Below, one piece after another: positions 6,041 through 47,371 of a stretch of DNA of 64,000 nt. The position numbers and the translations under genes are program-made. A model generated the notes under the pieces. The model had not been told where the DNA came from, ran no database searches, and worked only from the letters and a program-made list of their open reading frames with translations. The DNA is from Ginglymostoma cirratum (Eukaryota). The DNA lies in assembly GCA_024137785.1 (NCBI GenBank), contig JAHRHZ010000092.1, positions 563,770-627,769 on the forward strand, in the 5' to 3' direction. The stretch's first letter is position 1. Each line of letters starts with the position of its first letter.

Positions 6041-6560
6041 ATGTATCCGTTGTTAGTTCTGTTCATCGTATTTTACTGTAAGGGACTTTCTAATTTACAA
6101 TTATATTTCAACCTCTAATTTTCTTTCAACTGGCTATCCTTCACTCCTGCTCTCATTCTATTTCTCTAGATTCCTCTTTTTTCATTTGTTACTTTCTTTT
6201 TCCTTTCTCGACTTTGTCCCCATTTACTGACCTCTTCCTCTCCCCGTCTTTTCCTTAGATGTGAAATCACAGTATATCCACCAGAACCCCGCCGCCGTCT
6301 CCAAATTTCCCGAAGAGGGTGTGAACCTGCAATGCAGCGTGGAGGGGAGCAGCAGTAGTAGTCTCTACTTGTACTGGTACAGACAGTCCCCCGGAAAAGA
6401 ACTAAAGCTGATGTTTTACTCCAGTACAGCACAATACGTGAATCCACAGAAGCCGGTGGACGGTTTCACCGCCGAGCGACCGAGTAGCTACGAGTTCTAC
6501 CTGAAGGCCTCCAGCCTGTGGGTGAATCACTCGGCCGTGTATTACTGCGCCTGGAGTCTT
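6041..6560 (+). CDS. TRBV: TCR beta V gene segment V1 (TRBV30-like family), apparently functional; leader exon 6041-6077, intron 6078-6258, V exon 6259-6560
   Basis: Leader ATG TAT CCG TTG...TAC T|gtaag (MYPLLVLFIVFY); acceptor ttccttag|AT; open V-set domain with Cys (LQCSV), YWYRQ and YYCAWS; followed by a perfect 23-RSS. Confidence 0.93.
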
Positions 6561-6599
6561 CACAGTGACTCGGAGAGAGGAAGCAGCTCAACAAAAACC
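6561..6599 (+). promoter_or_regulatory. 23-bp-spacer recombination signal sequence of V1
   Basis: CACAGTG + 23 nt (actcggagagaggaagcagctca) + ACAAAAACC. Confidence 0.97.
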
Positions 6600-9500
6600 C
6601 CAAAGGCGAAAGGAAGCAACTTTTATTGTCAAAACCTGATGGTCAGAAATGCAACAGCAACCAGAGACAACTGTTTATACAATCGTTAAGTGTTCTCAGG
6701 TGCTCCTATTTTAAGGGGAAATAATCCAGCCCAAAATATGTTTTCCACTTCCCCCGACACCAGCACCTGCCACTGATCAGCTGCTATCTCTTTCATCACA
6801 ACTGAAGTTCTCATCTTGCTGCCGTGCTGATTGAAGTCTGTGTATTCTGTTCTAATTCCTAATAATTATCCCCCAGAGTCTTAATGAAGCGGATTCACTC
6901 CCAACCTTTCTCAATGTCAGATCAGCTTTCTCATGCTATCGCCTGGAGCTCAGGCTGTAAGGCCCTGAAGGCTTTACATTTCAAATACAATGGATTTAAT
7001 GCTTGGATATGCCACATCATCGATACCAGTCATGCATGATCTTGTAAGCACATCCTTTATTCAAATAAAAACCTTCCAAACTTCAATCTTTGCCTGAGCA
7101 ACTTGCAGCCTTGAATTGTGATAAACTCCATGCTAAATTATTTTGTTCTTTACACATTTTGCAATAATGATAAAGTGAAAGAATGAATAGAACGAGAAAA
7201 AAAAGAAACTGAAAATTTAAAAAATGGTGTAGATCAAGTGAGATAGTTTATTTTTCTTCTCAGAACTGTTTGTGTAATCCAGCAGCAACTTCAAAGTAGT
7301 AAAGCATCTCTGGCCATGAACGTTAACGGATAAAGTTTGACACAGAACTTCCTAAGAACGGGCGACCAAAGCTCGATAAGAGACATTGGTCTTAAGGAGC
7401 ATCTTAAAAGGAGAACAAAAGAGGGGGAAGGTTTCGAAAGCCAAATCCAGAGTTTAGGGCTGAGACACTCGAAAGCACAGCCATTGACCATGGAGCAAAG
7501 AAAACCGAGGTTATCCAAAATGCTGGAATTGCCAGATTGCAACATTCTCTGAAGGTTTTAGAGCTAGTGGAGGTGACAGTGATAGGGAGAGACAAGACCC
7601 ATGTGGGGGCTTTAAGATAATAAGATGAGAATTTTAAAAGTTGAGGCATGCTGTACTCGGAGATCAGTGAACCATGGTCTGACGGATGAACAGCTTTGGA
7701 TGAGCTGAAAAGCGGATACAAACAAAGTCTAGTCAAAGCCTGGATGTAACAAACTACGGCTGAAGGTTTCAGCAGCAGATGGGTTGAGGCAGGGTCAGAA
7801 ATGCAACAGCAACCAGAGACAACTGTTTATACAACAGCTTCCCTTGGGAATATACCAATAATATTAACCACATGCTTCACTTTAAGTCAGTTATTTGAAA
7901 GCAATAAATTGCATTTAAATATTTAGTTACAGCATAAAAATGAGGTTGTAGTCAATTGGTTATAGTCTGTTCCAACACACTCTATTCAAGCTTACTGTAA
8001 AAGGCAGCTTACACAGATCTCTTCTATAAAAAGTGAAACATCACCTTCGGTGTGAAGTGACATTGGACAACACTTCTCAGGAGTAATAAATTATCCTTAT
8101 TCTGTTCGCACATAACCACAAGTAGTAAATGTGCTCCATTGTGTATTTCTAACTTAGTACAAACCACCTAACTTCAGAATTCTTTATGGTTCTTTTATTC
8201 AGACTTCAGGGGTCAGTCGATAGCACATGGACTGTAATGGTTCAAGAAGGCAGCTCACCACCACCTTCTCAACTAGGGACGGGCAATAATTACTGGCCAG
8301 CCACTGGTGCCTATTTCCCACAAATGTAACAAGGATGCTTAGCTCCACGGAATTCCATTGCAACATTCTGAAATGAGGTGAGCCGTTGGAACAAGCCAAG
8401 TATTCCAAAATGCTACTGTCTTCATGGTAGACAAAAGGAATCTCTAGTTACATCAATCAAGCTGGATCAATAACAATGATTAGGCATGTTCACATTCTTT
8501 GTTAATACACGGTACTGTCTCATACTTTTGGTAGAATCATGGGCAACAAGGAAGAGGATAGAAAGTAATTACGTGTAGAGATACTGTCAGAACAAAGAAC
8601 AGTACAGCACAGGAACAGGCCCTTCAATTCTGAGCCAACACTCGATGCCTTTACAGCTAAAACCTTTTGCTGTCCGCTGTCTGTACCCCTCTGTCCCCTG
8701 CTTCTTTGTGTATGCGTCAAGATGACTGTCAAAAGTTGCAGTTGCATCCGTCTCCGCCACGTTCTCTAGTAACGCATTCCAGCACTGACCATCCTGTGTT
8801 TTAAATCAAAAAAACTTGCCTCTCACATTTCCTTTAAACTTACCCCTTTTACCTTAAACTTCTGTCCCCCTAGTGATTAACATTTCTGGCCGGGGAAGAA
8901 CTATCCGTTCCATTCATGCCTGTCAATTTTGTGAACTTTTGGCAGATTGCCCTTCATCCTTCGACGTTCAGTACCCTCCAAGGCAGGCCAGTGAATCATT
9001 TCTACACCCTGTCAAAGTCGGTAGTGTGGTAGCGTTGAGGGTGTATATGAAATTGAAAACGATCAAGCTCTCAACTACCAAGAAAGTTTGAACAGGTTCG
9101 TATCGGTTGAAAAGCCGGAAACTGTTTCAAATTCTGAAGTGGGTTCAATAGTTTAGGCTCTGCGGAACTTCTAAACTCGTCGTCACGGCCGTCCTTTCTA
9201 AGAGTAAATCCAACTGGAAAAAGTCAACAGAAACATTTTTTTTTAACCGAGATAGTAGTAAGAATGTGGAATTCGTGGAATTCGCAGAATCATAGAATGG
9301 ATTCGGAACAAGGCATTGAAAATAAGCGACTGACAGAAAATGGAAGGGAAAATACCAGGACGATTTAAAATTATTTTTCTATTGGTGCAACAGAGGGCGC
9401 TCTAGCAACATGAAATTCACCTGGGGTTGGTTCAGCTTTAACCGTTTAACGTAGAAATATAATTACTAGGAATAGAGTAAGCCATTCAGATCTTTAAAGC

Positions 9501-10259
9501 TATTCTGCGATTCAGTACGATCATGGCTGATCCTCTGTTTCAATACCAAATTCCTGCTTTCTCCCCCACCTGCCCCCAAACCCTGACGCCTTTGAAATTA
9601 AAATTAAACTATCTCTTTCTTGAATACATTCAGTGACTAGGCCTCCACGGCCTTCTGTAGTAGAGAACTTCACAAGTTCACCTATTGAAAGAATCTTTGG
9701 GAGAAAAGCGGGAGGGTCCAAGGAAATGAGGCCCCATCTAAATTGGGGGAAGACCAGGAGTTACTCCACATCAGCCCGAGGATAGAATAAGTCCATTATA
9801 ATCAAAGACTATCACCAACGAGTCCATGACTTCAGGCACGACCCAAAACCGCCGCTCAGACTCCGCCATTCTACAGAACTGTTTCGGGATCGGTGAAATG
9901 TTTCTCATCTGTCACGATTGTATATTTTCTTTATCTAATGAAACTGCTGCTCCTTCACAAATTCAACAAAATAGCAGTAGTTGCTACAACACAATTGCAC
10001 AAATCAACAGATTCCCACTTTAAGCTGTAACTGCCAGCGCTTTGGACACTGTTCCACTGGAGGTTCCACATGCAACAAATCACACGGAGAGCGGGGCTTT
10101 CAGTCCGGATGGGAGGGGCATGTGTACACACAAGTCATTTCCTGAATCCTTCAGGAGGTTTCTCATTGATTTGCAAAAAGCTGGTTTCAGTTCCAAACAA
10201 GATTGGACTCTGCTGTTCACGTTTAGTCCCCCACGACAGGAAAAGCTTAAAGTAAAAAG

Positions 10260-10723
10260 ATGTATCTCTTAATGAGCCTCATGATGTTATTTCAATGTAA
10301 GTGATTATTCATCGAATAAATTGAGGGAACAGCCATCCTTTACGCATTATTTTCTTTTAGAAAAAAACACTTCCTTTCTCCTTCTTGGTAACAATTGCCC
10401 TGTTTACTGACCTGTTCCCTTTCTCAGACGTGAAGACAGCGAGGGTCAATCAGACGCCCAGCAGTGTCACCAGGTCCCTCGGGAAGGCAGTCGAGTTGAA
10501 ATGCACGGTGGAGGATGAGAGTAGCGATTACATGTACTGGTACAGACAATACCCGGGAAAAGAGCGGCAGTTTATGTTTTATTCTGCAGGTGCAGAAAAT
10601 GTGAATGAAGAAGGAGCTGCGGACGGTTTCACCGCTAGGCGACCGAGTGGCTCTGACTTTAACATGGAGTCTCGCAGCCTGCAGGCGCGTCACTCGGCTG
10701 TTTACTACTGCGGCTGGAGTGCT
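10260..10723 (+). CDS. TRBV: TCR beta V segment V2 (TRBV30-like, divergent); leader 10260-10296, V exon 10428-10723
   Basis: Leader MYLLMSLMMLFQ T|gtaagt; acceptor ttctcag|AC; open frame VKTARVNQTP...LKCTV...YMYWYRQ...HSAVYYCGWSA. Confidence 0.9.
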
Positions 10724-10763
10724 CACAGTGACTCAAGAGAAACGGAGCAGCTCAACAAAAACC
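10724..10763 (+). promoter_or_regulatory. RSS of V2 with 24-bp spacer
   Basis: CACAGTG + 24 nt (actcaagagaaacggagcagctca) + ACAAAAACC. Confidence 0.92.
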
Positions 10764-10945
10764 CCAAAGATAGCAAGAAGCAGCTGTCAACGATACCGCT
10801 CATACTTTCATCCTGCTGAGGAAGCTCTTGCATCCTAAAGCCGCAGCTCTCTCCCCTCCCCATTTAGAGAGACAGGACAGCTGTACAACCGGAGATTTTT
10901 TTTTAAAAGATGACGTTACAGCAATGATGCGAAAGTTGAGGGATT

Positions 10946-11495
10946 AGAACATAGAACAGTACAGCAGAGTGCAGGCCCTTCAGCCCACGATGTTGTGCCG
11001 AACTTTTACCCTAAATCTAAGGTCTATCTAACCTCCGCCCCTACCTTATAGTATCATCCATATGCCTATCTAATAGCTGCTTAAATGCCCCGAATGAGGC
11101 CGACTCTACTATCTTCTCCGTCAATGCATTCCACGCCCCTACCACTCTCTGAGTAAAGAACCTACCTCTGACGTCTCCCCGATATCTACCTCCACTCACT
11201 TTAAAACTATGCCCCCACCCCCTCATAATAGCTACCTACACCCGAGGAAAAATCCTCTGGCTGTGTACTCTATCTATACCTCTGATCATTTTGTACACCT
11301 CTATCAAGTCACCTCTCATGCTTTGTCGTTCTAAAGAGAAAAGTCCTCGCTCTCTCAACCTTTCCTCGTAAGACCGTCCCTCCATTCCAGGCAACATCCT
11401 GGTAAATCCCCTCTGCACCTTTTCCAACGCTTCCACATCTTTCCTGTAATGAGGCGACCAGAACTGGACACAATACTCCAGATGTGGCCGAACCA
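10946..11495 (-). mobile_element. CR1 LINE 3' fragment
   Basis: RPHLEYCVQFWSPHYRKDVEALEKVQRGFTRMLPG; RFFTQRVVGAWNAL; tagaacatagaac tail. Confidence 0.9.
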
Positions 11496-11784
11496 GGATT
11501 ATAACTATCGGAAAGAACTGAATGACATAGACGAACATTTTGCTGAGTCTAACTCCTTCCTGAAAACATGCATTTTTTTTTGGTCTCAACACGTTTCTGA
11601 TTGAGAGAATTCCATAGGCTCATTATTCTCTGGATGCAGAAATTTCCCTTCATGTCAGTTCTAAATGGCCTACCCTGTATCATTAAACTGTGGCCCTGGT
11701 TCTGGACTCCTTGATCATCGAAAATGTGCTTCCTGCGTTTGTGTTGCTATTTTATGGATTTCTATGAGATTCCATCCCCACCCC

Positions 11785-12372
11785 GGTCAAACCCCCTCAA
11801 AGTATATTAAGAAGGTAGTCTAGACCCTAACTTTTACTTATTTTAAAGGTAAGTCGTTGCGTTCGGATGCAATTTGATTGGTCAAACTACTCGATGCAAG
11901 CAAACTTCATTTTTACACTACAGTTAAAGTACAGGCAAAATAAAAACAAAACTGGTTTAACTGTAACCTCATCAAAATGCTTAACAAAATAATATATAAC
12001 TATTAATAATGAAGTGTTCCAACATAGTAATATACTATGTACACGCCCTTGGCAAAGGTAAATTCAGTAAAATAGATTGTCTCACGTGCAATTCTAGCAG
12101 CAGGAAGAGAACCCCAGCTTTTAACTGTAAGAGACAGAGGAAGAAGCGTTTCCACCTTCAACACTCCAGCGACTGCCGAAATCTAAATCTAAAAATCCTT
12201 TTTCTGTAGGAGTTTGGCCCTACCCACTCAGACTGTTTCTATTGTTCCAACTTTAAAACAAAGGCCCAAGGTCTCAACAGCTATTTACTTCATTGATTTT
12301 GTGCCTCTGTCTCCACCTTCTTCATTAAAAAGCAGGACAAAACACACCTCTTCAAGCCATAATATCATGACA
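11785..12372 (-). mobile_element. Probable solo LTR; related copy at ~3265-4385 spans gap 1
   Basis: Starts TGTCATGA on the minus strand, flanked by cccacccc on both sides; block gcaaaggtaaattcagtaaaatagattgtctcac...gaagagaacccca shared with 4070-4380. Confidence 0.55.
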
Positions 12373-12755
12373 CCCACCCCTCTTTTAAAAATGAACCATC
12401 AATATACAAAGATGGCTTCATCTTTCATAGCCTTTAGTTTTTACGCTATTAAAAAACTACAATACGTTACATTGACTCATGCAGATATGCAGATAAAAGC
12501 ATGCAGATATTCACTACTATTTCAGTCCGTTTTTCCCGCCACCGAATGCCTCTATCTTCCTTCTATAATGTCACGACAATGCACCGGCAATTATGTTCCC
12601 TCCTCCTGCGACAACTATAATTTTCAAACTGAATGGATGCAATAATAAGCTCTACACAAAGCAGTTTGGATTTTTTATCCCTATATTTTCCAAAAACTTT
12701 AGGGGGTTATGATCAGTATATACAACTGTCTCAGACACATTACTAGCAATATAAA

Positions 12756-13237
12756 GACAACGCAGTATGGAGCTGGAGGAACACAGCAGGTCACGCAATA
12801 TCTGAGGAGTTGGAAAGTCGACGTTTGCAGTAGGGACTCTTCTTCAGTCTTTGAAGACTCTGGATGTACTGCAGGTAGTGGTTGTCGTGATTTGGGCCAA
12901 ATTGGGATGGCTTGAATGTTGTTTGGAGTCCGTTGGGGATGACCTAGCTGCGTGGGCAGGTACCTAGAAAGGAGCTGTGGCTGTAGTACCGGGTTTGTTT
13001 GAGTACATAGTGGAACAGCTTCAGGACGGAGGAGATTACCAGTGGGTTGCGGTGGGCGAGAGATCCACTTAGATCTTTCCAGAGGGAGGAGGACAACTTC
13101 TTCAAGGTAGGCATCCTTGGAAGAAGCTTCACGGTGGAAGTCGACTTCCCTACTCCTCTGATGCTGCCTGACCCGATGTGTTCCTCCAGATCCACACTGT
13201 GTTGTCTCTGACTTCAGCATCTGCAGTTCTTGTTGTC
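12756..13237. mobile_element. Inverted Penelope-derived element
   Basis: Opposing PLE ends; 15-bp TSD tactagcaatataaa at 12741-12755 and 13238-13252. Confidence 0.85.
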
Positions 13238-13279
13238 TACTAGCAATATAAATGTTGCATTGCCAACACCAAACTGAGG

Positions 13280-13585
13280 TGACACAGCGATTAGCAGTGC
13301 TTAGCACGGCTCCCTCACGGCACCAGGAACATGGGTTCACTCCAGTCTCGAGTCTGGCGTCTTTGTGGAATTTCTCCTCGTGAACCTCGAGAAACACATT
13401 CTCCCCGTGTTTGCGTGGGTTTCCTCCGGGTGCTCCAGTTTCGTCCCACAGTCCAAATATGTGCAGGTTAGGGTGGATTGGCCACGGGATAGGGTCGAGG
13501 AGTTGGTTTGGTTTGGATTCTATTTGAAGGGTTGGTATGACTTGATGGGTCGAGTGACCTGTTTCCACGCAGTAGGGATTCTATG
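13280..13585 (+). mobile_element. V-SINE (HE1-like)
   Basis: V-domain ttctccccgtgtttgcgtgggtttcctccgggtgctcc; same tail as the 62573 copy. Confidence 0.8.
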
Positions 13586-13981
13586 AAACTCAAGGTCTCC
13601 TCAATTGTGGAATATTTCGGGTGATGATTATTTAATTTTCTGGAAGAATACCCAATAGGCCTTTCCGTCTTTGGTTTGTTTACTGGTTAGGGTCAAACTC
13701 CAATTTTTTTCTTCATATGCTACTGTACAGAACCGAACTGTTTTAGTGACTATGTTTGAAATAAAGATATAGTCAGGAATAAAGTATATTTTTTGAAATA
13801 AAAAATGGAAACAGAAAAGAGATCTTCTCAGTTCCTCCAAACTGCTATTCTGTATTAGAAGTCATGTCACGTCTACTTGTGAATGCACTTGGGACTATTT
13901 GGGAATCCAGTCGTGATTGCTTGCATTTTCATTAACATAGTCTGAGGAGGAATTTCAAATAAACAAGCACGCTAATTCTGA

Positions 13982-14071
13982 GACAGCAAGGTGTGGGGCT
14001 GGATGGACACAGCAGGCCAAGCAGCATCAGAGGAGCAGGAAGGCTGATGTTTCGGGCCTAGACCCTTCTTC
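13982..14071 (-). mobile_element. 90-bp Penelope 3'-end insertion in the V3 promoter
   Basis: 16-bp TSD agcacgctaattctga at 13966-13981 and 14072-14087. Confidence 0.88.
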
Positions 14072-14178
14072 AGCACGCTAATTCTGATTGGATAGAACGA
14101 GGTAGAGATTCCTCAGTAAGCGGGTGTCGCATTGCAAGATCCCAAATTTCCTGTTCTCGATACGTCCCTTATTAAGGG

Positions 14179-14488
14179 GATAACGCCGTGTGGAGCTGGA
14201 GGAACACAGCAGGCCACGCAGCATCAGAGGAGCAGGAAAGTTGACGTTTCGGGACCCTTCTTCAGAAATGGGGGAGGGGTAAGGGAGCTCCGAAATAAAT
14301 AGAAGAAATGTGGGGCTGGTGAAGGTAGATTTCGGAGCTCCCTTCCCCCTCCTCCATTTCTGAAGAAGAGTTCCGACCCGAAACGTCAACTTTCCGGCTC
14401 TCCTAAAGCTGCCTGGCCTGCTGTGTTCCTCCAGCTCCGTACTGCGTTATCTCTGACTTCAGCATCGGCAGTGCTTACTATCTCTGAG
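14179..14488. mobile_element. Short inverted Penelope-derived element just upstream of the V3 ATG
   Basis: Palindromic PLE 3' ends; TSD cttattaaggg at 14168-14178 and 14489-14499. Confidence 0.88.
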
Positions 14489-14516
14489 CTTATTAAGGGA
14501 AAATTGGAGACACAAG

Positions 14517-14991
14517 ATGTATCTGTTACTGGGCATTATGATCATATTTCACTGTAAGAAGGTTTACAAACGATATTTTCTGTTGTTCAGCTTTACTTTC
14601 TCCTTCGCTTTTTACGTTTCTCTCATACTCTCACCTCCCTTTGGTTCTTCAACGTTGACCTAAATGTTCCAATTTACTAGTTTTGTTTGTCCTAGTTGCC
14701 GACTCGCAGACGATCCAACAAACTCCCGCAGCTGTCTCCAGCAATCCTTGGGAGAGAGTAGAACTGAATTGCACTGTGCTGGGTACCAGCGATCCTTACA
14801 TTTACTGGTACAGGCAACTCCCGGGGAAAGAGCCGCAGCTGATGTTTCACTCCCTTACTGCACGAAATGTGATTCCTAAGAAGCCGGTGGACGGTTTTAC
14901 CGCCTCCAGACCGAGTGACTCTGAGTTCTACCTGAAGACCTCCAGCCTGTGGCTAAATCACTCGGGCATGTACTACTGCGCCTGGAGTGTT
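14517..14991 (+). CDS. TRBV: TCR beta V segment V3 (TRBV30-like); leader 14517-14553, V exon 14696-14991
   Basis: Leader MYLLLGIMIIFH T|gtaag; acceptor gtcctag|TT; open frame DSQTIQQTP...LNCTV...YWYRQ...NHSGMYYCAWSV. Confidence 0.93.
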
Positions 14992-15030
14992 CACAGTGAC
15001 TCAGAGAGATGAAGTAGTTCAACAAAAACC
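14992..15030 (+). promoter_or_regulatory. 23-RSS of V3
   Basis: CACAGTG + 23 nt + ACAAAAACC. Confidence 0.97.
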
Positions 15031-15419
15031 CCAAAATTGGCAGGAAACAGCTGTTTTCGTCAAAACAGTGCTTTGCCTTGATCCGCTGTATTTGCTTGCA
15101 GAGCGAACATGTTCTTCAATGTGAGAGAAGAGTTACTGGAAGCTAAGTTGAGGAATACTGAGAAGCGTGAAAAGGGAACTGCGCAAGGAGGTTCCCAGAA
15201 ACGAGAAACTACAAGAAAGACTCAAAGTGATCAATTCATTTGTGTTGAAACTGCAACATTGAGAACAAAACCTAAAAAGCTCTTTATAATCATGAAAAGA
15301 TTGCTTTCAGAAAAGTTTGTGATCTGGAAGGCCAGGATCAGAATAAGTATGAGTCACAAATAATCCTGAAAGGAAATCCAGGAGAAACACGGCGAGTGTA
15401 AAATAAAGGGATATAAAAT

Positions 15420-16140
15420 TAAATAAAATTCTACAGGATGTGCAGGAGCAGTGTGACCTGCGTGTACGTGTGTTTTAGTTATTAAATGTGGTGGAGGGAG
15501 CCGTTATTAAAACATACAGTATTCTAGTCTTCGTAAATAGGGAAGGTAAAGTGCAAGAGCAGGGAGATTCTTACGGATTTATTTAACTTTATTTAAGTTA
15601 GATCTCAGCTGCAGCAGTGTGAACAGTTCTGGGCTTGAAGCTGTGAATGCAATCGAGAGAGTGCAGAAGAGGTTTATGAGAATAGTCCCAGGGATGTGAC
15701 ATTTCAGTTCTGGGGATAGACTGACAAAATTAGAACTGGTCTCCTTGGTGGGGAGAAGGCAAACGAAGATTTGATAGAAGTTTTGAAAATCGAGGCATGT
15801 TGACAGAGTAGATAGGGTGAAATAGTTCCCACTTAGAAAATGGTCGAGAACCAGAGGGTACACTTGAAAGGTGTTTTGCAAAAGAAGCAATTACGAGCCG
15901 AGGAAAAACTTTTCAACACAAGAGAGTAATTAGGATATGGAAGGCACTACTTGGAATTATGGCGGAGGCAAGTTTTACTGAGGTACTCAAGAGGACGTTA
16001 GACGTTTATTTAACAGAAACAATGGGCAGGGTTATGAGGAAACAACATAAGACTTTTAACGAAGTTAAGATGCTCGGAACTCCTCGCAGACTTGATGGGC
16101 TGAATGATTTCTTCTTACACTGTAATGATCCTGTGATTTG
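15420..16140 (+). mobile_element. Old CR1 3' fragment
   Basis: gagagagtgcagaagaggtttatgagaatag and other CR1 C-terminal motifs, heavily decayed. Confidence 0.65.
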
Positions 16141-17220: not shown

Positions 17221-17680
17221 ATGCATCTGTTAGTGAGTCTCATAATTTTATTTCGATGTGTGATATTTTTATCAGTTCCTTTCTTAAAGTTATAATTTGT
17301 TTCATTTATCTTTCTCCAACTACTTGACTGATCTTCTCTTCTCTCCATCTCTTCCTCAGACGGGAACTCAGCGACAGTCCATCCGACACCCCCATCCGTT
17401 CCCAATGTTGTTCAGGAGAGAGGGGAACTGAAGTGCATTGTAGAGTTGGCCAGCAATGATTATATATACTGGTACATACAATACCCGGGGAACGAGCTAT
17501 AGCTGATGCTTTACTCCAGTACTGTCGAGTATTTGATTCCAGAGTGGACGATTTCACCGCTGAGCGACCAAATACTTCTGAGACCAATCTGAAGTCCTCC
17601 AGCCTCCGAGCGAATCACTCGGCCGTATTTTCCTGCACCCGGACACTAACTCAGAGAGAGGGTGCAGCTCAACAAAAACT
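17221..17680 (+). pseudogene. TRBV: TRBV30-like pseudogene V4 (leader 17221-17257, V exon from 17360)
   Basis: Leader MHLLVSLIILFR; ELKCIV...YIYWYIQYPG; in-frame TAG, frameshift before VDDFTAERP, ends NHSAVFSC; heptamer decayed (gacacta) but family spacer and ACAAAAACT nonamer retained. Confidence 0.9.
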
Positions 17681-19139: not shown

Positions 19140-19330
19140 CGTTAAAACCTTAGACGATAATCTTATCATATAGTCAGAAGATTTTTTGCACGCCCACGCT
19201 AAAATCTCCGCTTCAATCCATGCATATTGCTGATCCGTCTCAACGAGTGGTCTAGGAGCATAATGGGCAGGCTTCTTCTTTTCATCTTCCTTTACCTGAA
19301 AGAGTACAGTCTCCAATCCTGGTGAAAATG
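19140..19330 (-). mobile_element. Ty3/Gypsy pol (RNase H) remnant
   Basis: KPAHYAPRPLVETDQQYAWIEAEILAWACKKSSDY resembles the Gypsy RNase H consensus PVAYASRxLxxxEQRYAQIEKExLAxxWAC. Confidence 0.65.
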
Positions 19331-19489
19331 CATTGGGTGCTATTATGGTCACAAACTGTGGATCAATGTATGCCAGAACTTCTAATCATGAATTGCCTGA
19401 GTGAATCACTCTTTTCACTGTTAACCTTCGTGTGCTCCCTGTCTCAAAGACCGATTTGCTTCTGCCATATTTGGCAATGGCAGTTCATA

Positions 19490-23054: not shown

Positions 23055-23093
23055 CACAGTGACTCAGACAGAGGGAGCAGCTCAGCAAAAACC
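23055..23093 (+). promoter_or_regulatory. Orphan V-type 23-RSS with no leader or V exon upstream
   Basis: CACAGTG + actcagacagagggagcagctca (23 nt, family spacer) + GCAAAAACC; downstream flank resembles other V flanks; upstream is promoter-like DNA only. Confidence 0.92.
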
Positions 23094-26906: not shown

Positions 26907-28264
26907 ATCGTCTCTGGCTGGGGCTGTCCATCATATTTCACCGTAAGCTTTTGTTTTCAAACGACAATTCGCATTCTGAACTCTTATTTCTCTATTTTTC
27001 TAATATATTGTTGTATATTTTATTTCTGTATTTTTCTATTCTTTTCCCCAAGAATGCGTACTTAAGAAAACCCGAAAGAACTGCGGACGCTGTAAATCAG
27101 GACCAAAACAAGAGTTGGTGGAAAAGCTCTGTAGGTCTGGCAGCAACTGTGAAGAAACAAATCAGAGTTAACGTTTCGGGTCCGGGGACCCTTCCTCAGA
27201 ACTGTTGGTTGCTCTGGACAACGTCGGTTTATATGCAGAAAATAGGAAGGGGGTGGAGTAGAGAGTAAACAATAGGATAAAGGATAGAGCCCAAAGAGAA
27301 AGAAGAGCATAGACAAAGGAATTGATAACGATCTGGCTAGGAGAGTGAATGGTTGTTAGTGGGGACTGTCAGTGACTAACAATAGGTAGTGTGTAATGGC
27401 AGGCTACGTGATAACAAGGCCTGATATTTGGGGTAGGGGGCTAAGACATTGGAGTGTTTAGGCTCTAAAATTATTGAACTGGGTATTGATTCTGGAGGGC
27501 TGCAGGGTCCACAAGCGGAAAATGAGCTGTTGGTCCTCCAGCTTGCATGAGCTTCGCTGGAACACTGCAGCAAGCCTGAGACAGAGGGAGGGTGGTGTGT
27601 TAAACAGGCCAGGGAGCAGGGTGGTGTGTTAAATTGGCAGGCAACTGGAAGCTCAGGATCTTTGTACCTAGGTACCTTGCTGCCTAAGATAGCGCTGTTA
27701 AGTGGTTAGTTGTAAACTCTTCACTGTACTCGTGTGAGCATACGTGCCAATAAAGCTAATTCTAAATTGTCAAATTCTTTATTGAACACCTAACATTCGT
27801 TTACACAGGATTCCCTCCTCCTGCTCACTTTTTGTCCTCTTTCTATTTCTCTTAATTTAACTTTCTTTTCCCTCCTTCTTGTTTCTCCACGGTTCATGGT
27901 GTTGTTATTTTCCGATGTCTTCCTATCCCTGCCTTTTCTACAACTGTGAGGTCGCACACTTTGCCAGTTTCCCTTCGCCGTCTCCAAATGACCTGGGAAT
28001 AGAATGAACTGCAGTGTACATATGAGAGGAGTGGTGCCTTTGATGTTGACGAAAGCAGACAATCCTTGGGAACGGTGCTGCACTTCTCGTTTCACTTTGG
28101 TGCTGCATATCATGTGAATCCAGAGAGCCAGTGGATGGTTTCACCGCCGAGCGACCAACAGGTTCCACGTTCTAGTTGAAGACCGCACGCCTCGAGGTGA
28201 TTCATTCGGCCGTTGATTATTGTGTTCACAGTGACAGAGAGATGTGAGCAGGTCAACAAAAACT
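26907..28264 (+). pseudogene. TRBV: TRBV30-like pseudogene V6; decayed leader ~26907-26942, intron expanded by repeat insertions, V exon ~27943-28226, RSS 28227-28264
   Basis: Leader remnant ...atcatatttcacc|gtaag; V remnants gaactgcagtgt, gtggatggtttcaccgccgagcgacc, cattcggccg; stops and frameshifts; CACAGTG + 22 nt + ACAAAAACT. Confidence 0.85.
27066..27662 (-). mobile_element. Penelope 3' fragment (second family) in the V6 intron; short relatives at 22404-22504 and 61489-61648
   Basis: LEDQQLIFRLWTLQPSRINTQFNNF on the minus strand; end aaccgaaagaactgcgga; relatives have TSDs aatattctggg and ctatcaacat. Confidence 0.8.
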
Positions 28265-31401: not shown

Positions 31402-31894
31402 ATGTATCTGTTACTTGGTCTATTGATCATCTTCCACAGTAAGCAAATTTTCAAAAGAAAACTCCTATATTTGATCTTTCTTTACTTTCATTTATTTCGT
31501 TTTTTTATATTTTGTTTCGTTCTTTCTATCTCCATCTCTCCTTTTTTTCCGTTATCCGAATGATCGAACTTAACGAGTTTTCTCCTCTCTTTGTACAGGG
31601 GTAGATTCGCAGACTATTCGCCAGACTCCAGCAGCCGTATCGAACAATCCTGGGGAAAAAGTCGAACTGAAGTGCACTGTACTGAGCACCAGCAATACTA
31701 ACATGTACTGGTACAGGCAACACCCGGGGAGAGAGCCGCAGCTGATGTTTTACTCCTTGATAACTAAGTCTGTGGATCCAGCGACTGCGCTTGACGGTTT
31801 CACCGCCGAGCGACCGAGTAGCTCCGAGTTCTACCTGAAGGCCGCCAGCCTGTGGGTGAATCACTCGGCCGTGTATTACTGCGCCTGGAGTCTT
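31402..31894 (+). CDS. TRBV: TCR beta V segment V7 (TRBV30-like); leader 31402-31438, V exon 31599-31894
   Basis: Leader MYLLLGLLIIFH A|gtaag; acceptor ttgtacag|GG; open frame VDSQTIRQTP...LKCTV...MYWYRQ...NHSAVYYCAWSL. Confidence 0.93.
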
Positions 31895-31933
31895 CACGGT
31901 GACTCGGAGAGAGGGAGCAGCTCAACAAAAACC
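31895..31933 (+). promoter_or_regulatory. 23-RSS of V7 (variant heptamer CACGGTG)
   Basis: CACGGTG + 23 nt + ACAAAAACC. Confidence 0.94.
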
Positions 31934-32774: not shown

Positions 32775-32847
32775 TCCTCTCCTCTATCCATCCTCTATCC
32801 GCCTCCCCCTCTCTCCCTATTTATTTCAGAACCCTCTTCCCCTCCCC

Positions 32848-33036: not shown

Positions 33037-33163
33037 CGGTATTGCCTGTACCAGTGCATGTGAGGATCGCTGGTGCTTAGTAAGTTGCTCTTCAGTTCCA
33101 TTCCTCTCTGAGGATTGCTGGACACCGCTCCTGGAGTCTGGCGCATAGTCTTCGAATCAATGC
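33037..33163 (-). pseudogene. TRBV: Inverted, 3'-truncated TRBV30-like fragment V8
   Basis: Minus strand: acceptor gtcccag, then IDSKTMRQTPGAVSSNPQRGMELKSNLLSTSDPHMHWYRQY (aligns to V3/V7 FR1-FR2, Cys lost); no 3' half and no RSS. Confidence 0.85.
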
Positions 33164-38400: not shown

Positions 38401-39800
38401 ATATGCACCACGACAACTGGCTGTTCGCCCTCCCCCTTCGGAATGTTCTGCAGCCAATCTGAGACATCCCTGACCCGTGCACCTGGGAGGCAACATACCA
38501 TTCGGGAGTCTCGTTTTCGACCACAGAACCGCCTATCTACTCCCCTTACAATTGAATCCCCAATGACTATAGCCCTTCCACTCTTTTTCCCGCCCTTCTG
38601 TACAGCAGAGCCAGCCACGGCGCCATGAACCTGGCTACAGCTGCCTTCCCCTGGTGAGCCATCTGCCCCAATAGTATCCTTAACGGTATACCTGTCTTGG
38701 AGGGAGATGACCGTTGGGGACACCTACACTGCCTTCCTGCTCTTTCTCTGCGTTTTGGTCACCCATTCCCTTTCTTCCTCAGCAATCCTAATCTGCGGTG
38801 TGACCAATTCGCTAAACGTGCTATCCACGACCCCCTCATCATCGCGTATGCTCCAAAGTGAGTCCATCTGCAGCTCCAGAGCCATCATGCAGTCTAACAA
38901 GAGCAACTTCACCTTATTCCACATTGTATTCAATTTTCCAAGTTTTTGCCCACTTCCTTAACTTATCGATATTGCTCTGCAAACTGTTTGCATCTCCTTT
39001 GTAATTTGCCTTTCCACCTATTTTGTCTTGTCTGTAAATTTGACTATCACATATTTGCTTCCCTCCTCCAAGTCAGTAATATATGTATTGTAAACAGGTC
39101 CCATCCCAGAGCTGATCCTTGTGGAACTCCACTGGTTACAGGTTGCCAACCTGAAAAAGGGTTCAGACACGAAATGTTGACTTTCCTGCTCCTCAGGTGC
39201 TGTCTGACCTGCTGCGCTTTTCTAGCTCCACATTTTTTGGACTTTAGCTTCCAGTGTGTGCAGTCCTTATCTCCACCTGCTGTTTCCTGCCCTTCAGTCA
39301 ATATTCTATCTGCACCAATGTGCTACCTCAAACACCGTGGGCTCTTATCTTATGGCTTAACATTTTGTGAGGTACCTTATCAAACACCTTCTGGAATTGC
39401 AAATGAAATACATCTACACAGTTCCCTTTATCCACTCTGGTTGAAACTTTCTCGAAGACAGGCACATCGTTCCTTTCATAAGCCATGCTAACTCATTTCG
39501 ATTACATTTTGATTCTCCAAATGTGCTATTACTTCCTTGATAACTGATTTCAGAATTTTCCCATTAATAGATTTTACGTTAATTGGCTATTGTTACTTTT
39601 TGCCTCCCTCCCTTTTTGAATAGGACTGTCATATTGACAGTTTTCCAATCCTCCAGTACTTCTCTGGATTCCAAGGATTTTTGGAAATTTACAGCCAAAG
39701 CATTCACTATCCTGTAGCTAATTTTTTGAATCCTCGAATGCAAGTCATCAGGGCCAGAGAGAATTTATCTGCCCTTATCTCCGTTAGTTTGCCTAATACT
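35410..39800 (-). mobile_element. Older CR1 LINE (35410-36180 and 38900-39800) split by the younger CR1
   Basis: Decayed RT remnants continue on both sides (WQPVTSGVPQGSALG at 39047-39301; CR1 3' region at 35420-36180). Confidence 0.75.
36185..38900 (-). mobile_element. Young CR1-clade LINE with internal deletion, nested in an older CR1
   Basis: ORF 36285-38030 has RT motifs (KSPGPDG, NYRPVSLTS, QHGF, DFSKAYD, PQGSVLG, FADD); ORF1 with coiled coil (38724-38933) and SGNH esterase GDSIVR (38307-38723); 3' (TTCTTTG)n-like tail near 36185-36215. Confidence 0.93.
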
Positions 39801-40208
39801 AGTTCTCTTGTGTTGCTAATGGTACGTAATTAGTCCCCCTTATTCGTTAGTATTAAGGGAACGTTGATGACTTCTTACCAGTTAGAAAGTACTCTCAACT
39901 TTCGAATTAGGTTGAATGAAAATGACCTTCGAATTTCGATATTAAACTACATCTGCCGCTGTTTTGCCCACTCACTTTATTTCAGTATCATTTGAAAACT
40001 CCTGCTCTGACACGTTTCGCTTACATCCAATCATGAGGGAACGGATGTGTGATGTCAATCAGCGTAGGAGAACTGTGGCCTTCCACAACTGCATCACTTC
40101 CTTAACCCCTTCATATTTAATCAATGACTTGAAAAGAGCAGAGAACTTGCACCGAGGCCGAACGCCCTTAATTTCACTCATATCTCTATTACAAGACCAG
40201 CTTACAAG

Positions 40209-40709
40209 ATGTATATCTTATTGACTCTCGTCAGCTTGTTTCAATGTAAGTGTCTTTTTCAGATAATATCATTTCTTAACAACCTTTGTGTGCCGTTTCT
40301 TTCATTTACTCGTTATTTCTTTCCATATTTCATTCTTACTTTCTTACCTCCTACACTTTACAGATCCACCCCGGTTCTGATTTGGTTCTCTCTCATTTCT
40401 TTTCCCCAAGCCGTGAACGCACAGACTATCCGCCAGGTTCCAACCGCTGTCTCCAAATTACTCAACGACAGTGTGGAAATGAAATGTCTTTTCGATGGGA
40501 GCAACAGTAACCCTGCAATGTACTGGTACAGACAATACCCGGGGAAGGAGCCGCAGGAGATGTTTTATTCCGTTGCAATCGGTTCCGTGAGCCCAGATGA
40601 AGCAGTGGACGGTTTCACTGCCAAGCGACCTACTGGCTTTGAGTTCAGCCTGAAATCCTCCAGCCTGTGGGTGAATCACTCGGCCGTGTATTACTGCGCC
40701 TGGAGTGTT
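40209..40709 (+). CDS. TRBV: TCR beta V segment V9 (TRBV30-like); leader 40209-40245, V exon 40411-40709
   Basis: Leader MYILLTLVSLFQ T|gtaagt; acceptor ttccccaag|CC; open frame VNAQTIRQVP...MKCLF...MYWYRQ...NHSAVYYCAWSV. Confidence 0.93.
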
Positions 40710-40748
40710 CACAGTGACTCAGAGAGCTGGCGCCGCACAACAAAAACC
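40710..40748 (+). promoter_or_regulatory. 23-RSS of V9
   Basis: CACAGTG + 23 nt + ACAAAAACC. Confidence 0.96.
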
Positions 40749-42038
40749 CCAAGGGCTGCAGCTGTTTTAGATAATGCTGCGCGGTACCTCCACCCACTTT
40801 GTTGAGTTCATGCAAAACAACATGGTCTTGATAATAACAGCCAGTTTACAATGAGCGTTAGTGATTAGATATATAATTGCACTTGGAAAATATGGATCGA
40901 AAATCTAAAGCGATGTTGCCAGAACTGAGAGCTTCTGACTACCAAAAAAAGAAGGAACGTGTTCATTTTCCCGAGAAAGCAAAAAGCTTGCGACTCAGAG
41001 AAGGGTTTTATAGGCAGAGAGAAAATGTTGCCCCGGTTGAAAACACAGACTGAGGGAACCATAAATATAAATTCCCCCAAGAATCTAATGGACATGCGGG
41101 AGAAGATTCAATGGTGAGATTGTGCGACTAGCTACCTCAGAGACAAAAATAGAAATGGCTGGAGAAACGCAGCAGATCGGGCAGCATCTGTGGAAAGAAA
41201 ACAGATTTAACGTCTCTAGTCGAGTGACCCATAGAATAGCTATCTCAGGGAGTGTCTTGAGCTGAGCGACGTTGTTACAGTTTAGGAACAAAGTGGATAA
41301 ACGGGTGATATAAAACAGATAGAAAAACTAGTTTTGGGATATGACTGGAACCCGACTGGAGCAAATCTTTTGGAAGCGTTCGGTGAGCAGAGGGCAATTG
41401 CGTCCAGGTCAAGGTTAATTGTGACTGAAACAAATAATGATAACACACGCAGACAAGATAAATAGAAATAGCAGGGCGTGAAAAAGGAAAGCAATAGAAA
41501 ACAAGGGTACTTAAAAATGCAAAGATGAAAACAGTGAAGAAATTTAAATTTTGGGAGGAAGGTAGCAGCGGCCACTCCAGGACCATAAACTGCAACACCC
41601 GCGACAAAGATCACCAGCGGGAAATTCTGCCCTTCTAGTCTGAAACCGTGTTTTTACTTCCGATATTGCTTCCAAAATGATGAAACTGAAGTCAACATTC
41701 CCTTAATCCTTTATAACCGAGCGTATGCACGGAACTACATGCCTTTGTAGTCATCGTCTCGGAAATCATTCGGCTGACTGTGTATTGCACTCACTGTTAG
41801 GCAAAAATATGCTCTTTGAGGTGCTCCAGCCAGTATTGATGGCATTGTTCCACACATCCGTCTGTTCGCGACAAACGACAACATCTCCCTGTCGCGAACC
41901 ACTTCAACTTTCCCTCCACTCCCTGGCGACAATGTCCATCCGGGCCTCCTCCAGTGTCGCAATGATGTCACACGCAGACAAGATAAATAGAAATAGCAGG
42001 ACGTGGAAAAGGAAAGCAGTAGAAAACAAGGGTGTTTT

Positions 42039-42128
42039 CTCCGATGGTACAAATATAGTGGACCCGAAGGAAGAGGTGGACAGTTAGACCTCCGAACAAC
42101 CGATCGGCATCCCGTCTAACCTGAAGTC
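42039..42128 (+). pseudogene. Duplicated internal fragment of relic V10, fused to a Penelope fragment
   Basis: About 90 nt near-identical to 43178-43268, including the same in-frame TAG (gtggacagttag). Confidence 0.8.
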
Positions 42129-43089
42129 TTCCTGGAGGAGAAGCACCTCATATTCTGCCTTGGAAGTCTACAACCAAATGGTCTCAATGTGGACTTAACT
42201 AGTTTCAAAATCTCCCCACTCCCGGCCTCATCCCATGACCAACTCTCCCTCTCATCCCCGCCTCCTTGACCTGACACAACCTATCCGCTCCTCCCACCTC
42301 ACCGACCTATCCCCACCACTGCCTACCTGTGCTCACCTACCACCATCCCGCCTACCTTTCCAAGCCCCACCCCACCTCTCCATTTATTTCAGAGCTCCCT
42401 TCCCCCATTTCTGAAGAAGGGTCCCGACCCGAAACATCAACTCGACTGCTTCTCTGATGCTGCCTGACCTACCGTGTTCCTCCAGCTCCACACTGTTGTC
42501 TCTGACTCCAGCATCGGCAGTTCTTACTATCTCACAAGCAGAAGCTCCTCCATTTTGTATGTTATACTCTTGATAAAAACGCTGAACTCGATTTGACCTG
42601 ATGATTTCTTTGTGTCTCCGTCCACCTTTTTCAGTGTTATGTAGATTTGGACAACTAAACGCCTTCGTTGTTTCTCGCCAGTTGGAAAGTGCCCTGTTCT
42701 ATCTGCCTTCGACCTATCTTTGTTCAAATTCGAACCCCCATAAAATTCACCATATTTTAGTAGTCGGTTTAGGGACAGCTACCAACTTCTTCCTCCCATT
42801 TCGCATCCAATATTAGAGAGCGTTAGGGTGGCGTAGGGAGGTTTTTAGCAGATAGGGAGGTGCTGGGCAGCCAGAAAGTGAGTTTTCCTGGCAACCAATC
42901 ACAAAGAGGGAGGCACAGGGTTATTGGAGAGGTTGGTAGTGTCGAAAACCGAGTCACTTAAGAATATTAGAAATAAAAATAACTGCCTGCTGTTTCTGAT
43001 TTCTACAGGGATTTGAAAACAGCTGATTATTCCTCAAGTTTCTGTATTCCAGTTATCGTTCACTTTAAAATCTGACCGCTGAATCTACA

Positions 43090-43303
43090 TTTCCTGCAAA
43101 GGGAGAGGAACTGCAGTGGAGCAAGGAGGAGCGCAGAAGCGGCTACATTACCGGTACGGCCAACAGTGCATGTTTAGCTCCGATGATACACATATAGTGG
43201 ACCCGAAGGAAGAGGTGGACAGTTAGACCTCCGAACAACCGATCGGCAACCCGTTTAACCTGAAGTCCACCAGGTCAAGTCAGAGCATTCGGCTGGAGTC
43301 TTC
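43090..43303 (+). pseudogene. Highly decayed TRBV30-like relic V10
   Basis: Remnants gaactgcagtgg (ELQC), tacattaccggtacggccaa (YIYWYRQ), atgtttagctcc (MFYS), gtggacccgaag...gtggac, aacctgaagtcc, cattcggc..tggagtctt; CCAATCA upstream at 42895; RSS not recognisable. Confidence 0.7.
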
Positions 43304-44454
43304 AAAATCAGTCCGCGTAATTGACAAAAAAAGAAGCTCCAAAATGGCGTACAAAAATTGTTCGAAGTTTCAGCTGGTTTTGTTGTTACAGAGGTGAAGC
43401 GTTTATGACAATACGAAATGATTAAGGCTTAGAATAAGAGCGAGACAGTGAAAATACAGATATATTGGGGAAAGTTCAAAGAAAGATGAACAAAAATAAA
43501 CAAAACAGAGGAGCTACATAGTTCAGGAATGATTGCCAGTTGAGAAACAGAACTTTCTGCTCAGCGTCGTAACTTTGGGAAGCGAGAGGAAGACATTCAG
43601 CTCCGGTTGGGCCCCTAGACAGGGGGGGCAAGGAGGCCATTCAGTTCCCTCTGACTCTGTTAGATATCTGCTAGACACCCCTACATCCTCTAAAGTCACG
43701 TACACAGGAACAAGCTCGAAGGACCCCTTGCACCGTCGCAGAAGGGGGCAAACTTGACCACCTGAGGATCTGACAGATATTTTCAAATCAACCCGTTTAG
43801 AGATGCTGTTACACAACTTTGGAGCAGGTAGGGCTTGAACCCAAGCCTCCTGACTCAGAGGTAGGGAAGTTACCATTGCACCATAAAAGTCCTTCTGAGG
43901 CTGTTACACGGGAACTGGAGGCCGAGCCAGCATCTGTGAGTCTACTACACAGGAATGTCAGGCGGGCTATTGTGACACTAATCTTGAACAGGATGTCATT
44001 TCATCCTTGTCCTTCTATTCAGTCCCAACATGACTCATGAGTCTTAACTCAATTTACCCACTATATTCATTAACAGTTGATATGATCATTTGACAATAAT
44101 ATCCCAATCCCAGAACTGAATGCCCCATCGGAAACATAACGTCACAAGACTGTCGAGGGGAGAGAGTTCTCGATTTCCGTTAATCTTGGCCTGAGGATGC
44201 GATTTCTGACTTCATACCTGCATTTACAACCTTGAAGATAAGAGACATTTCCCCGTGTCATGGGAACGTTCGCCTGAGGTATTACTTCCTTTCTTTACCA
44301 TAGAAACATTAAAAAAAAGGATTAACCGTCGGCCATCGAGCCCTCAAACCTCACCACTATTCAAGGTGATCGCATCTGATCTCTTATGCCAATGCTATAC
44401 TTCTGCTCTCTCGTCATATCCTTCGATGCCTTTAGTACAAAGAACAGTACAGCA

Positions 44455-45960
44455 CAAGAACAGGCAATTCGGAATACCAAGACTGCAATTGACTCATGAT
44501 GCATTTCTAAACTAAAAACCCTCCGCTTTAAGGGGTCGGTATTCTTCTATTCCCTGTCTATTCATGTATCTGTCATGTATCTTAAACGTTGCTATTAAAC
44601 GCCCCACCAGCTCCTCTCGTAGTGCATTCCAGGCACGTACCACTCTCTGTATTAAAAAAAAAACCTGCCACTCACATCTTTAAACTTATCCTCTTTTTAC
44701 CTTGAGCCTACATCCCCTAGTAATTGACATAACCACTCTGGAAAAAAAGACTCCAACTATCCTTTCTTTCCGTGTTTCTCATAATTTTATAAACTTTTAT
44801 CCGGCCGCCCGTCATCTTTTGACGTTCAAATGAAAACAAACTAAATTTGCCCAATCTCTCCTCACAGCTAATACCTTGGAAACCAGGTAACATCCTGGTA
44901 AAGCGTTTCTGACTCTCTGCAAAGCTTCCACATCCTTCTGGTATTGTGAAGACCAGAACTGTACAAAATATTCTAACTGTGGCTTAGCTCAAGTTTTACA
45001 CACCTGCAACATGACCTGCAAATTTCTTTTTTTTATTTATTTCGACCGATGAAGGCAAGTGTGCCATTTGTCTTCTTGATCACCTTATCCACCTGTGTTG
45101 CCACTATCTGGGAATGGTGGATCTGTGTGCCTACATCTCCCTGCATGTTGATGCCACTAAGTGTTCTGATATTTGCTGTATATTTCTCTCCTAAACTAGA
45201 TCTTCTAGACTGCATCACTGTGCAGTTATCTGCATTAAACTCCATCTGCTGATTCTCCACCCAAATCTCCAGACTATGTGTATCTTCCTATATCCTGTGG
45301 CAATCCTCCTCACTGTCTGCAACTCCCCCAATCTTTGTGTCATTCACAAACTTGTTAATTAGAACACCTACATTCTCCTTCAAATCATTTATTTGTACTA
45401 CAAACAACAAGGGTTCCAGCACTGTTCCCCACAAAACACCACTGGTCACAGATCTCCAGTCAGAAAAACACCCTTCCACCACCACTCCCTGTCTTCTACG
45501 ACTAAACCAGTTCTGTATCCATCTTACCAGTTCATTGCAGATCCCATCTTTTGTATCAGCATGCCAAGAGGGACGTTGTCAAAGACATTGCTAAAGCTCT
45601 GCCTTCACCAATTATCTTTATCAATGCTTAATAAATATTGAGTTTGTGAGACATGACCTTCCCTGCACAAAGCCATGCTGCCCATTGCTAATAGATCTTA
45701 TTTCTTCAAATGTGAACAAATACTCACCCTAATAATCTTCAAAAATAATTTCTCTACAACAGACGTGACGCTCACCAGTTTGTAAATTCCCAGATTATCC
45801 CTGTGGGCCTTTTTAAACAAAGGAACGCCGTTGGCTATTCCCCAGTCCACTGGGACCCTCCCGTGAATAAAGATGATAGAAAGATTTCGTACGAGACTGA
45901 GCAATTTCCTCAACTGCCTCCCTTGGCATTCTGGGATGGATCTCATCAGGTCCTGTGGAC
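44455..45960 (-). mobile_element. CR1 LINE fragment
   Basis: WRSVTSGVLWGTVLEPLLF, NDTKIGG, GPDEIHPR remnants. Confidence 0.85.
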
Positions 45961-46858
45961 AAGAGATCTAGTCTTTCTTTCTTAAATGAGTTCATCTCCA
46001 CGGCCCTACACTGAAGAGACTTCACAGGTTCACCAGTCACTGAGTGAAGAAATTATTCCTCGTCTCAGTCTGAAATTGTCTATACTGTATCCTGAGATAG
46101 TGGCTCTTGTTCTAGATGCCCATATCCCCAAAACAGGGGGAGAACGTCATACCATCCTTGCTGTTCAACCCTCCCAAAGCTTTATACATTTTACTGACAT
46201 TCTTTTTCATTCTTTCGAAGAACAGTGAATGCAGCATAGTTCACCCATTCTTTCCTCAGGGGACAAGCTTGCGATCCCATCATCGGAAATGCATTTTACA
46301 TCATACACAATTCAATTAGACCACACCTCGATCTTCTGAATTCAAAGGAATGCAGGTCAGATTTGTCCAACCTCTCTACTCAAGGCAAAATACTGAGCAT
46401 GCTGGAGAACCAAAATACTTTTAAAAGGCAGAAATTGTTGGGGAAGCTCAGCAAGTCTAGCAGCATTTGTGAAGCGAGAAATAGGGCTAATTTCGAGTCG
46501 AATGACTCTTCCTCCGAACATTTTGAAAAACTTTCTGAAGCAGGGTCATCGAACTGGAAACGTTAATCCTGTTTCTCGCTCCCCAGATGCTGCCAGATCT
46601 GTGAGTTTCTCCAGCACTTTTCTGTATTTATTTCGGCCGTACCGATACTATACCACCGGTAAATCACTACATCTACCTTCTCAATTCATCTCTGAAAGTC
46701 CCTGCCCTCTGTTCCCAGCATTCTTTATGTGCAACCAATCAGGGAGGGAGAAAAGTCGGCATAAACTGCGCTTTATATTTTCGTCCAAGACCAGACTCTA
46801 GCTTCTCACATGATTTCAGTTCACAATCCTATTATTATGAGGGAAAGGTCAACCAAAG

Positions 46859-47371
46859 ATGCACCTATTACTGGGTCTGATGATCATGTTTCGCTGTAAG
46901 AATAGTTGTTCAACTTTTCCGCTTTTTTCTCTCTCTTTATTTACCACTTTCTTTCTTCTCTCGTTTACTGTTTCTTCTCTCCTCTGCCTCCAATGTTGCG
47001 CAAACTAACCGTCTCCGCTCCCTGTAGCTTTCCCAGACTTGAACTCACAGACTATCCGCCAATGTCCCGCCGCCGCCTCTAAATCTTCCGGAGAGGAAGT
47101 AGAACTGACGTACGTCCTGGATGGCAGCAGCGCAGATGCAATGTACTGGTACAGACAATTCCTGGGGAGCGGACTGCAATTGCTGTTTTACTCCGTTACC
47201 ACTGGTACTGTGGATCCATGAGGGACAGTGGGCGGTTTTGCTGCCGAGAGAACGAGTGGCTCCATGTTTAAACTGAAGACCTCCAGGCTCCAAGCCAATC
47301 ACTCAGCCACGTATTACAGCGCCTGGAGTCTTCACAGCGACTCAAAGAGATGAAGCAGCTCAACAAGAACT
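46859..47371 (+). pseudogene. TRBV: TRBV30-like pseudogene V11; leader 46859-46895, V exon 47037-47332, RSS 47333-47371
   Basis: Leader MHLLLGLMIMFR T|gtaag; NSQTIRQ...MYWYRQFLGSGLQLLFYSV; TGA at 47219-47221; both domain Cys lost (TAC, AGC); CACAGCG + 23 nt + ACAAGAACT. Confidence 0.92.

Follow-up and report, generated by a model that had tools for sequence, protein, structure and literature searches.

A 64,000-nt stretch of the nurse shark genome (Ginglymostoma cirratum, contig JAHRHZ010000092.1, here C92, positions 563770-627769; hereafter the window) carries an array of T-cell receptor beta variable (TRBV) genes whose family is likely co-orthologous with mammalian TRBV30. The array stands behind one D-J-C unit (unit A) and before a second, opposed one (unit B), an arrangement that likely stems from a mirror duplication; we put the probability of this reading as a whole at about 0.8. 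The findings suggest that a backwards-facing block of such genes is as old as the jawed vertebrates.

V genes and remnants in the window

Six-frame translation, signal scans and BLAST inside the window identified 11 related elements of one V family within 6041-47371, comprising five intact V genes (V1, V2, V3, V7 and V9) and six remnants (Table 1). This agrees with an earlier note on this DNA, which had counted at least 10 related segments with five intact. In each intact gene, a GT..AG intron separates a 37-nt leader exon from an open V exon, which is followed by a recombination signal. The spacer of this signal is 23 nt in V1, V3, V7 and V9 and 24 nt in V2. Both cysteines, the conserved tryptophan, a leader exon and a 3′ signal thus accompany an open frame in 5 of the 11 elements. 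The five genes are 49-69% identical in pairwise comparison, and V genes of the family end in C-x-W-S.

The motifs that the earlier note had described as shared (SQTIxQ, C-(T/S)-V, YWYRQ, L(M/L)FYS, (A/S)RP and CAWS) are typical of the family, but they are not common to all of its members. SQTIxQ is exact in only two of the five intact genes (V3 and V7), V2 ends in CGWS, V9 has C-L-F and V3 has LMFHS. The string GLQLLFYSV is present in V11 as claimed; V11, however, is a pseudogene. The human TRBV30 sequence given in the same note matches the alignment of PDB chain 3hg1_E, which we take to be TRBV30. A TRBV30 with a CAWS start is given for another clone in the literature.

Table 1. Features of the window (positions within the window) and of contig C92 (kb along the contig)
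Feature	Position	Strand	Remarks
V1, intact	6041..6599	+	leader 6041-6077, V exon 6259-6560, 23-nt-spacer signal 6561-6599
V2, open frame	10260..10763	+	CGWS end; 24-nt-spacer signal
V3, intact	14517..15030	+	23-nt-spacer signal
Pseudogene	17365..17679	+	stop, frameshift, heptamer gone
Orphan 23-nt-spacer signal, family type	23055..23093	+	90% match to V1 signal; no V exon recognised beside it
Pseudogene	27953..28264	+	frameshifts and stops; 22-nt-spacer signal
V7, open frame	31402..31933	+	heptamer CACGGTG
Truncated inverted remnant, family member	33039..33161	-	5′ third of V exon
V9, intact	40209..40748	+	23-nt-spacer signal
Decayed family fragment	43140..43273	+	tblastn E 0.003; blastn 73% over 60 nt
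V11, pseudogene	46859..47371	+	both cysteines lost, TGA stop, weak signal; contains GLQLLFYSV
Pseudogene V, different family	60152..60439	+	25-29% identity to array; same orientation as array
Window array	C92 570-611 kb	+	
Unit A	C92 D 695.5 kb, six J 695-687 kb, C 680 kb, TM exon 678.5 kb	-	
Unit B	C92 D 820.7 kb, six J 821.5-824.2 kb, C 840 kb, TM exon 842.5 kb	+	
Second array, same family	C92 880-978 kb	-	7 open frames, 4 remnants; mirror position behind C-B

Two opposed D-J-C units on contig C92

A map of C92 from 364 to 1228 kb places the array in a locus with two D-J-C units that stand head-to-head. In both units the D has 12/23 signals and a GGGACAG core, the J segments carry FGxG and a 12-nt spacer, and a single C1 exon is followed by a TM exon. 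Their D core agrees with the conserved TRBD given in PMC11754216. Since unit A lies on the minus strand and the array on the plus strand, the array is 3′ of and inverted to the constant gene of unit A (C-A), 67-108 kb past its TM exon, and at the same time 5′ of and direct to unit B. The choice posed in the earlier note, between a direct 5′ and an inverted 3′ array, therefore has both as its answer, because there are two opposed units.

The place behind C-A is the textbook position of TRBV30, with the orientation across the intervening N runs putative. Such runs lie between the array and C-A, their flanks failed to fix the orientation of the array, and one of them is flanked by inverted copies of one repeat. 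These features, and the several N runs of the region in general, would suit an explanation of the head-to-head double locus as an assembly artefact, a haplotype copy or a mis-oriented join. That explanation is nevertheless very improbable. C-A and the constant gene of unit B (C-B) are only 52% identical, so that one is not a haplotype copy of the other, and the two J sets differ. The C-A exon is also present in 11 of the 14 runs listed (none of those with the exon is recorded as RNA), and in Chiloscyllium members of both arrays lie on one scaffold, with a gene model collinear with the C92 map.

Between the two units, four further family members (two open, two broken) are interspersed among V genes of other families, and some of them are in direct orientation. 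The family on C92 thus comprises, over three places, 14 open frames and 12 remnants, to which N stretches may add more; this bears out the proposal of a multi-member, birth-and-death family rather than a singleton. Two of the 14 open frames have poor signals, with a 19-nt spacer at 734 kb and CATAGTG at 953 kb. Strong matches to V7 in the genome all lie on C92 (150 of 187 candidates scored). The stretches from 364 to 564 kb and from 978 to 1228 kb of C92, and 680-880 kb of a second contig, C150, yielded no further members.

On its outer side the array is flanked, at 549 kb, by a C1s-like protease exon. None of the 14 genome matches to the Eph ligand-binding domain and none of the five to DBH/MOXD lie on C92, and the only trypsin-family match on this contig among the 150 listed is C1s-like. 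TRBV30 is typically flanked by EPHB6, and trypsinogens and MOXD2 mark the 5′ end of its locus; synteny with these genes, of which the earlier note named EPHB6 and trypsinogens, was not found on C92. With a C1s-like flank and without EPHB6 on the contig, the shark array differs from mammalian TRBV30.

Relationship to TRBV30

In a tree of 100 rows, one clade of 50 rows unites all 48 C-x-W rows with V11 and one sturgeon V (support 96/96). This clade is sister to a shark family marked by YVEQSP and is placed, with weaker support, inside TRBV. A smaller tree of 42 rows recovers a C-x-W clade of 21 rows (96/98), within which the bony vertebrate members form a clade of their own (95/95). The companions of the shark family are TRBV30-type genes of an equid, a turtle, amphibians, gar, bichir and sturgeon, the equid sequence, from a cluster named TRBV30, being the only mammalian one. 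The trees rest on 95 columns, which limits their power; two degraded pseudogenes were left out of the protein tree, and one junk row (Stor_P0020_7) was kept in the larger one. These clades support the claim that the lineage predates the split between sharks and bony vertebrates.

Approximately unbiased (AU) tests of family placement used 42 of the 100 rows. Forcing the bony TRBV30-type genes among other TRBV was rejected in this set (p-AU 0.004). Forcing the shark family together with the YVEQSP family was not rejected (p 0.23; 0.59 in a quick run), nor was forcing it together with TRAV/TRDV (p 0.20). In the best trees the family groups with neither TRAV/TRDV nor TRGV, in a set assembled without NAR-TCR sequence; the earlier note had named a grouping with TRAV, TRDV or NAR-TCR as evidence against its reading. 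TRAV/TRDV-like (C115, C116 and C282) and TRG-like (C76) V sequences of the same genome belong to other clades, and a profile of the family gives them 35-54 bits. Against that profile, equid TRBV30 reaches 97 bits, and among the 85 reference domains no V from outside the family exceeds 85 bits.

Pairwise identity separates these groups little. For V1, identity is 41% both with equid TRBV30 and with a quail TRBV, and 40% with a mouse TRAV; in the family, pairwise identity with equid TRBV30 spans 38-45%. The best single-V-domain matches in the PDB are the 5xov_J and Mel5 beta chains, in rankings where multi-domain scFv chains, whose scores are summed, take up many places. The C exons alone match only immunoglobulin chains in the PDB and are uninformative on beta identity.

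A family confined to sharks could resemble TRBV30 through convergence or through slow evolution of a few motifs, and the low identity to TRBV30 and the two constrained trees that were not rejected are in keeping with this. Such an origin is unlikely, as the clade is supported in two taxon sets, graded intermediates occur in sturgeon, bichir, gar, tarpon, newt, frog, caecilian and turtle, and the bony group cannot sit among other TRBV. Judged on these comparisons of sequence, the shark family is very probably co-orthologous with TRBV30. The relationship is many-to-one and not one-to-one orthology.

Relatives in other genomes

Several copies of the family occur in Chiloscyllium (two species), Heterodontus, Scyliorhinus, Mobula and Hypanus. 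The expansion proposed in the earlier note therefore holds, but it is not peculiar to this shark, as other sharks and rays also have several copies. Among other fishes, homologues were found in sturgeons, in bichir and reedfish (named TVB30/TRBV30 by their sources), in gar, in tarpon and in an elephantfish, and among tetrapods in newt, frog, caecilian, turtle and equid. A homologue search with a single protein returned one match; queries built from an alignment were needed to recover the family.

V2 is 82% identical to a V of Chiloscyllium plagiosum, and a gene model of this species, P0011, combines a V of the far array with a unit-A-like J and an orthologue of C-A (65%) on one strand. The order of the model fits the C92 map, though a genome-based model can only show direct order.

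History of the arrays

Neither outer array forms a clade in a DNA tree built from 20 members of the family (p-AU 0.0085 and 0.0072). The partner of V1 is F973 and that of V2 is F950, and both pairs also have Chiloscyllium partners. An atypical V at 640 kb, next to C-A, recurs as a remnant behind C-B (73% over 138 nt). When the two halves of the locus were compared in blocks, only C, TM and one V remnant matched, the paucity of matches being due to masking of the V family itself as a repeat. In a tree of C exons, only the pairings of C-A with Chiloscyllium and of a broken exon on C150 with Scyliorhinus were resolved, which leaves the mirror duplication without a date.

The simplest reading of these data is likely an old mirror duplication of a D-J-C unit together with an inverted block that already had several members. 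Under this scheme, a multi-member backwards block and its D-J-C would have been duplicated in mirror image, after which copies were presumably born and lost by local duplication, leaving remnants such as the 6 of 11 elements in the window. Gene conversion or transposition between the arrays could yield the same DNA tree.

Leader splicing and joining of V1

Runs X1, X2 and X5 are only presumed to be RNA. In contigs of X1 and X2, the V1 leader is spliced to its V exon. One contig of X5 (n=1, depth 8.6) contains a V-N-D junction in which the end of V1 is followed by 10 N letters and a D, in frame; neither J nor C is in view (30 of 98 letters). The V part comprises 51 nt unique to V1 among the mapped DNA (or to V9, if one base was trimmed). 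The D part matches 11 of 12 letters of the unit B D, compared to 9 for the D of C150 and 7 for that of unit A. This single junction fits the D of unit B best and favours deletion onto unit B, while a trimmed unit A D with G-rich N letters could mimic it. Run X13 has no coverage on three V exons.

According to the 12/23 rule, a V with a 23-nt-spacer signal joins a D with a 12-nt spacer, and two routes would therefore be open to the V genes of the window. RAG would join them to the D of unit A by inversion (about 125 kb from V1), or may instead join them to the D of unit B by deletion (about 250 kb), excising unit A. In the two joins available, those of the X5 contig (V1 with a D-B-like D) and of model P0011, no inversional join onto the near unit is seen; both are direct and span the opposite unit.

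Direct joins are what would be expected if the TRBV30-like lineage were real and its backwards position here a mere by-product of two overlapping, opposed translocons, with the inverted position in bony vertebrates of separate origin. Each outer array would then serve the far unit as its 5′ array and would always join by deletion, and the direct family members between the units also fit this explanation. We regard it as possible but doubtful. The outer arrays share subfamilies, and each lies behind a C gene with a matching atypical V nearest to it, a pattern expected if C and the inverted block were duplicated in one piece; two joins are moreover too few to decide, and one of them comes from a model limited to direct order. 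Given the direct members between the units, the 3′ position need not be ancestral.

A more far-reaching version of the mirror duplication is tentative. It holds that the inverted block is ancestral to jawed vertebrates and that its mirror copy in carpet sharks created a second TCR-beta locus, in which inversion onto the near unit and deletion onto the far one would allow C-beta choice and editing. If true, the V genes of the outer arrays could choose between two old, divergent C-beta isotypes, with room for sequential beta-chain editing.

Comparison with known loci

Human TRBV30, mouse TRBV31 and opossum TRBV28 have in common with the shark array the C-x-W-S end, the clade and the 23-nt-spacer signal. 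The opossum gene is an inverted TRBV30 orthologue (PMC2275272), and mammalian TRBV30, like the window array, lies 3′ of and inverted to a TRBC. It is a single gene in mammals, in contrast to the 14 open frames and 12 remnants spread over three places on C92. A clade of 3′-inverted TRBV genes has been described in amniotes and amphibians, including five genes in tuatara and representatives in alligator and axolotl (PMC11754216; PMC12698447), and the newt has three inverted TRBV clusters that are used in rearrangements (PMC12698447). In tuatara and newt, as in the shark, inverted TRBV genes are thus present in multiple copies behind TRBC. The inversion has been traced to salmonids and some amphibians (PMC11754216); the TRBV tree of that paper held three nurse shark sequences, none of which its available text names in the inverted clade. 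Inverted V genes past C have also been noted for beta and delta loci generally (PMC12227049).

Head-to-head duplicated TRB loci are known from pike and salmonids (PMC10464911), where, as on C92, V genes lie between opposed D-J-C units. In these fishes nearly all V genes are in the middle and some J segments are identical between the units, whereas the shark locus has large arrays outside both C genes and its units are old, as the identity of their C genes indicates. The literature compared also took in PMC5278385 (duck) and PMC12529555, and the available text of PMC10322711, PMC6795676, PMC13433984 and PMC5857646 contained nothing on shark TRB layout. A literature search found no shark TRBV30 family or shark TRB map; older papers on horned shark and skate may mention the family. 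Each ingredient has a precedent in bony vertebrates, and the occurrence in a shark and the mirrored layout with outer arrays appear to be undescribed. If the present reading is true, the origin of the inverted TRBV30 lineage shifts from bony vertebrates to the jawed vertebrate ancestor, and the mammalian singleton represents a reduced state.

A third beta unit on contig C150

Catshark is said to have two TCR-beta genes, as described by Pettinello in 2017, and the nurse shark genome likewise has more than one C-beta. Apart from units A and B, C150 carries another intact beta unit, the third of this genome (V, D, five J, C and TM).

Six TCR-beta V families have been reported from nurse shark cDNA (PMC5931798). 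The receptor described there has a D-J-C organization like that of C92; its V-beta primers that were tested, with sequences from the same paper, instead all match C150 (5 of 5; four exactly and one with a single mismatch), and none matches the mapped region of C92. The published nurse shark V families thus belong to the C150 locus. This points to a large part of the shark TCR-beta repertoire, with two more C-beta genes and 14 open frames of one V family, beyond the reach of the published primers tested. The gap bears on conclusions drawn from that cDNA, for instance that shark TCR-beta lacks hypermutation, and the presence of three beta units bears on how allelic exclusion works.

Tail-to-tail behind the intact unit on C150 lies a broken J-C; a gene model of Scyliorhinus torazame contains its orthologue in intact form. 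In all, this genome holds three intact C exons and one broken one.

A separate TCR-beta locus

On another contig of the same genome (C150), the 680-880 kb interval holds a TCR-beta locus separate from that on C92, the contig of the array; it comprises V, D, five J, C and TM segments, and the V families it carries are those published for the nurse shark. After this locus, and tail to tail with it, come one J and one broken C. In Scyliorhinus torazame the orthologue of this broken C is intact and, in one gene model, is linked to a TRBV30-type V.

Additional segments on the array contig

Features outside the array are collected in the table. The atypical V pair behind C-A, the constant region of unit A, fell outside both TRBV and TRAV/TRDV in our trees, and a remnant of the V at 640 kb also lies behind C-B of unit B (C92, 886.8 kb). 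The J-like segment has a splice donor and no clear signal. The C1s-like gene has exons that appear CUB-like by eye and a protease domain that is contained in a single exon and finds C1s as its top PDB matches.

Features on contig C92 outside the V array
Feature	Position	Orientation	Remarks
Pseudogene V, family other than the array's	window 60152-60439	as array	three stops
Two open V genes, atypical family	C92 637847-640011	inverted	behind C-A
J-like segment	C92 694085	plus	amid the clustered minus-strand J segments of unit A
C1s-like gene	C92 513-550 kb		flanks the array
Non-repeat open frame	C92 446055-447788		578 codons
Putative galectin-like exon	C92 1169781-1170098		likeness by eye

Across V1-V3 (window 5900-15100), contigs from run X2, which is only guessed to be RNA, cover introns and intergenic DNA in 30 of 30 bins, reflecting either that the array is transcribed in germline form or that the run contains DNA.
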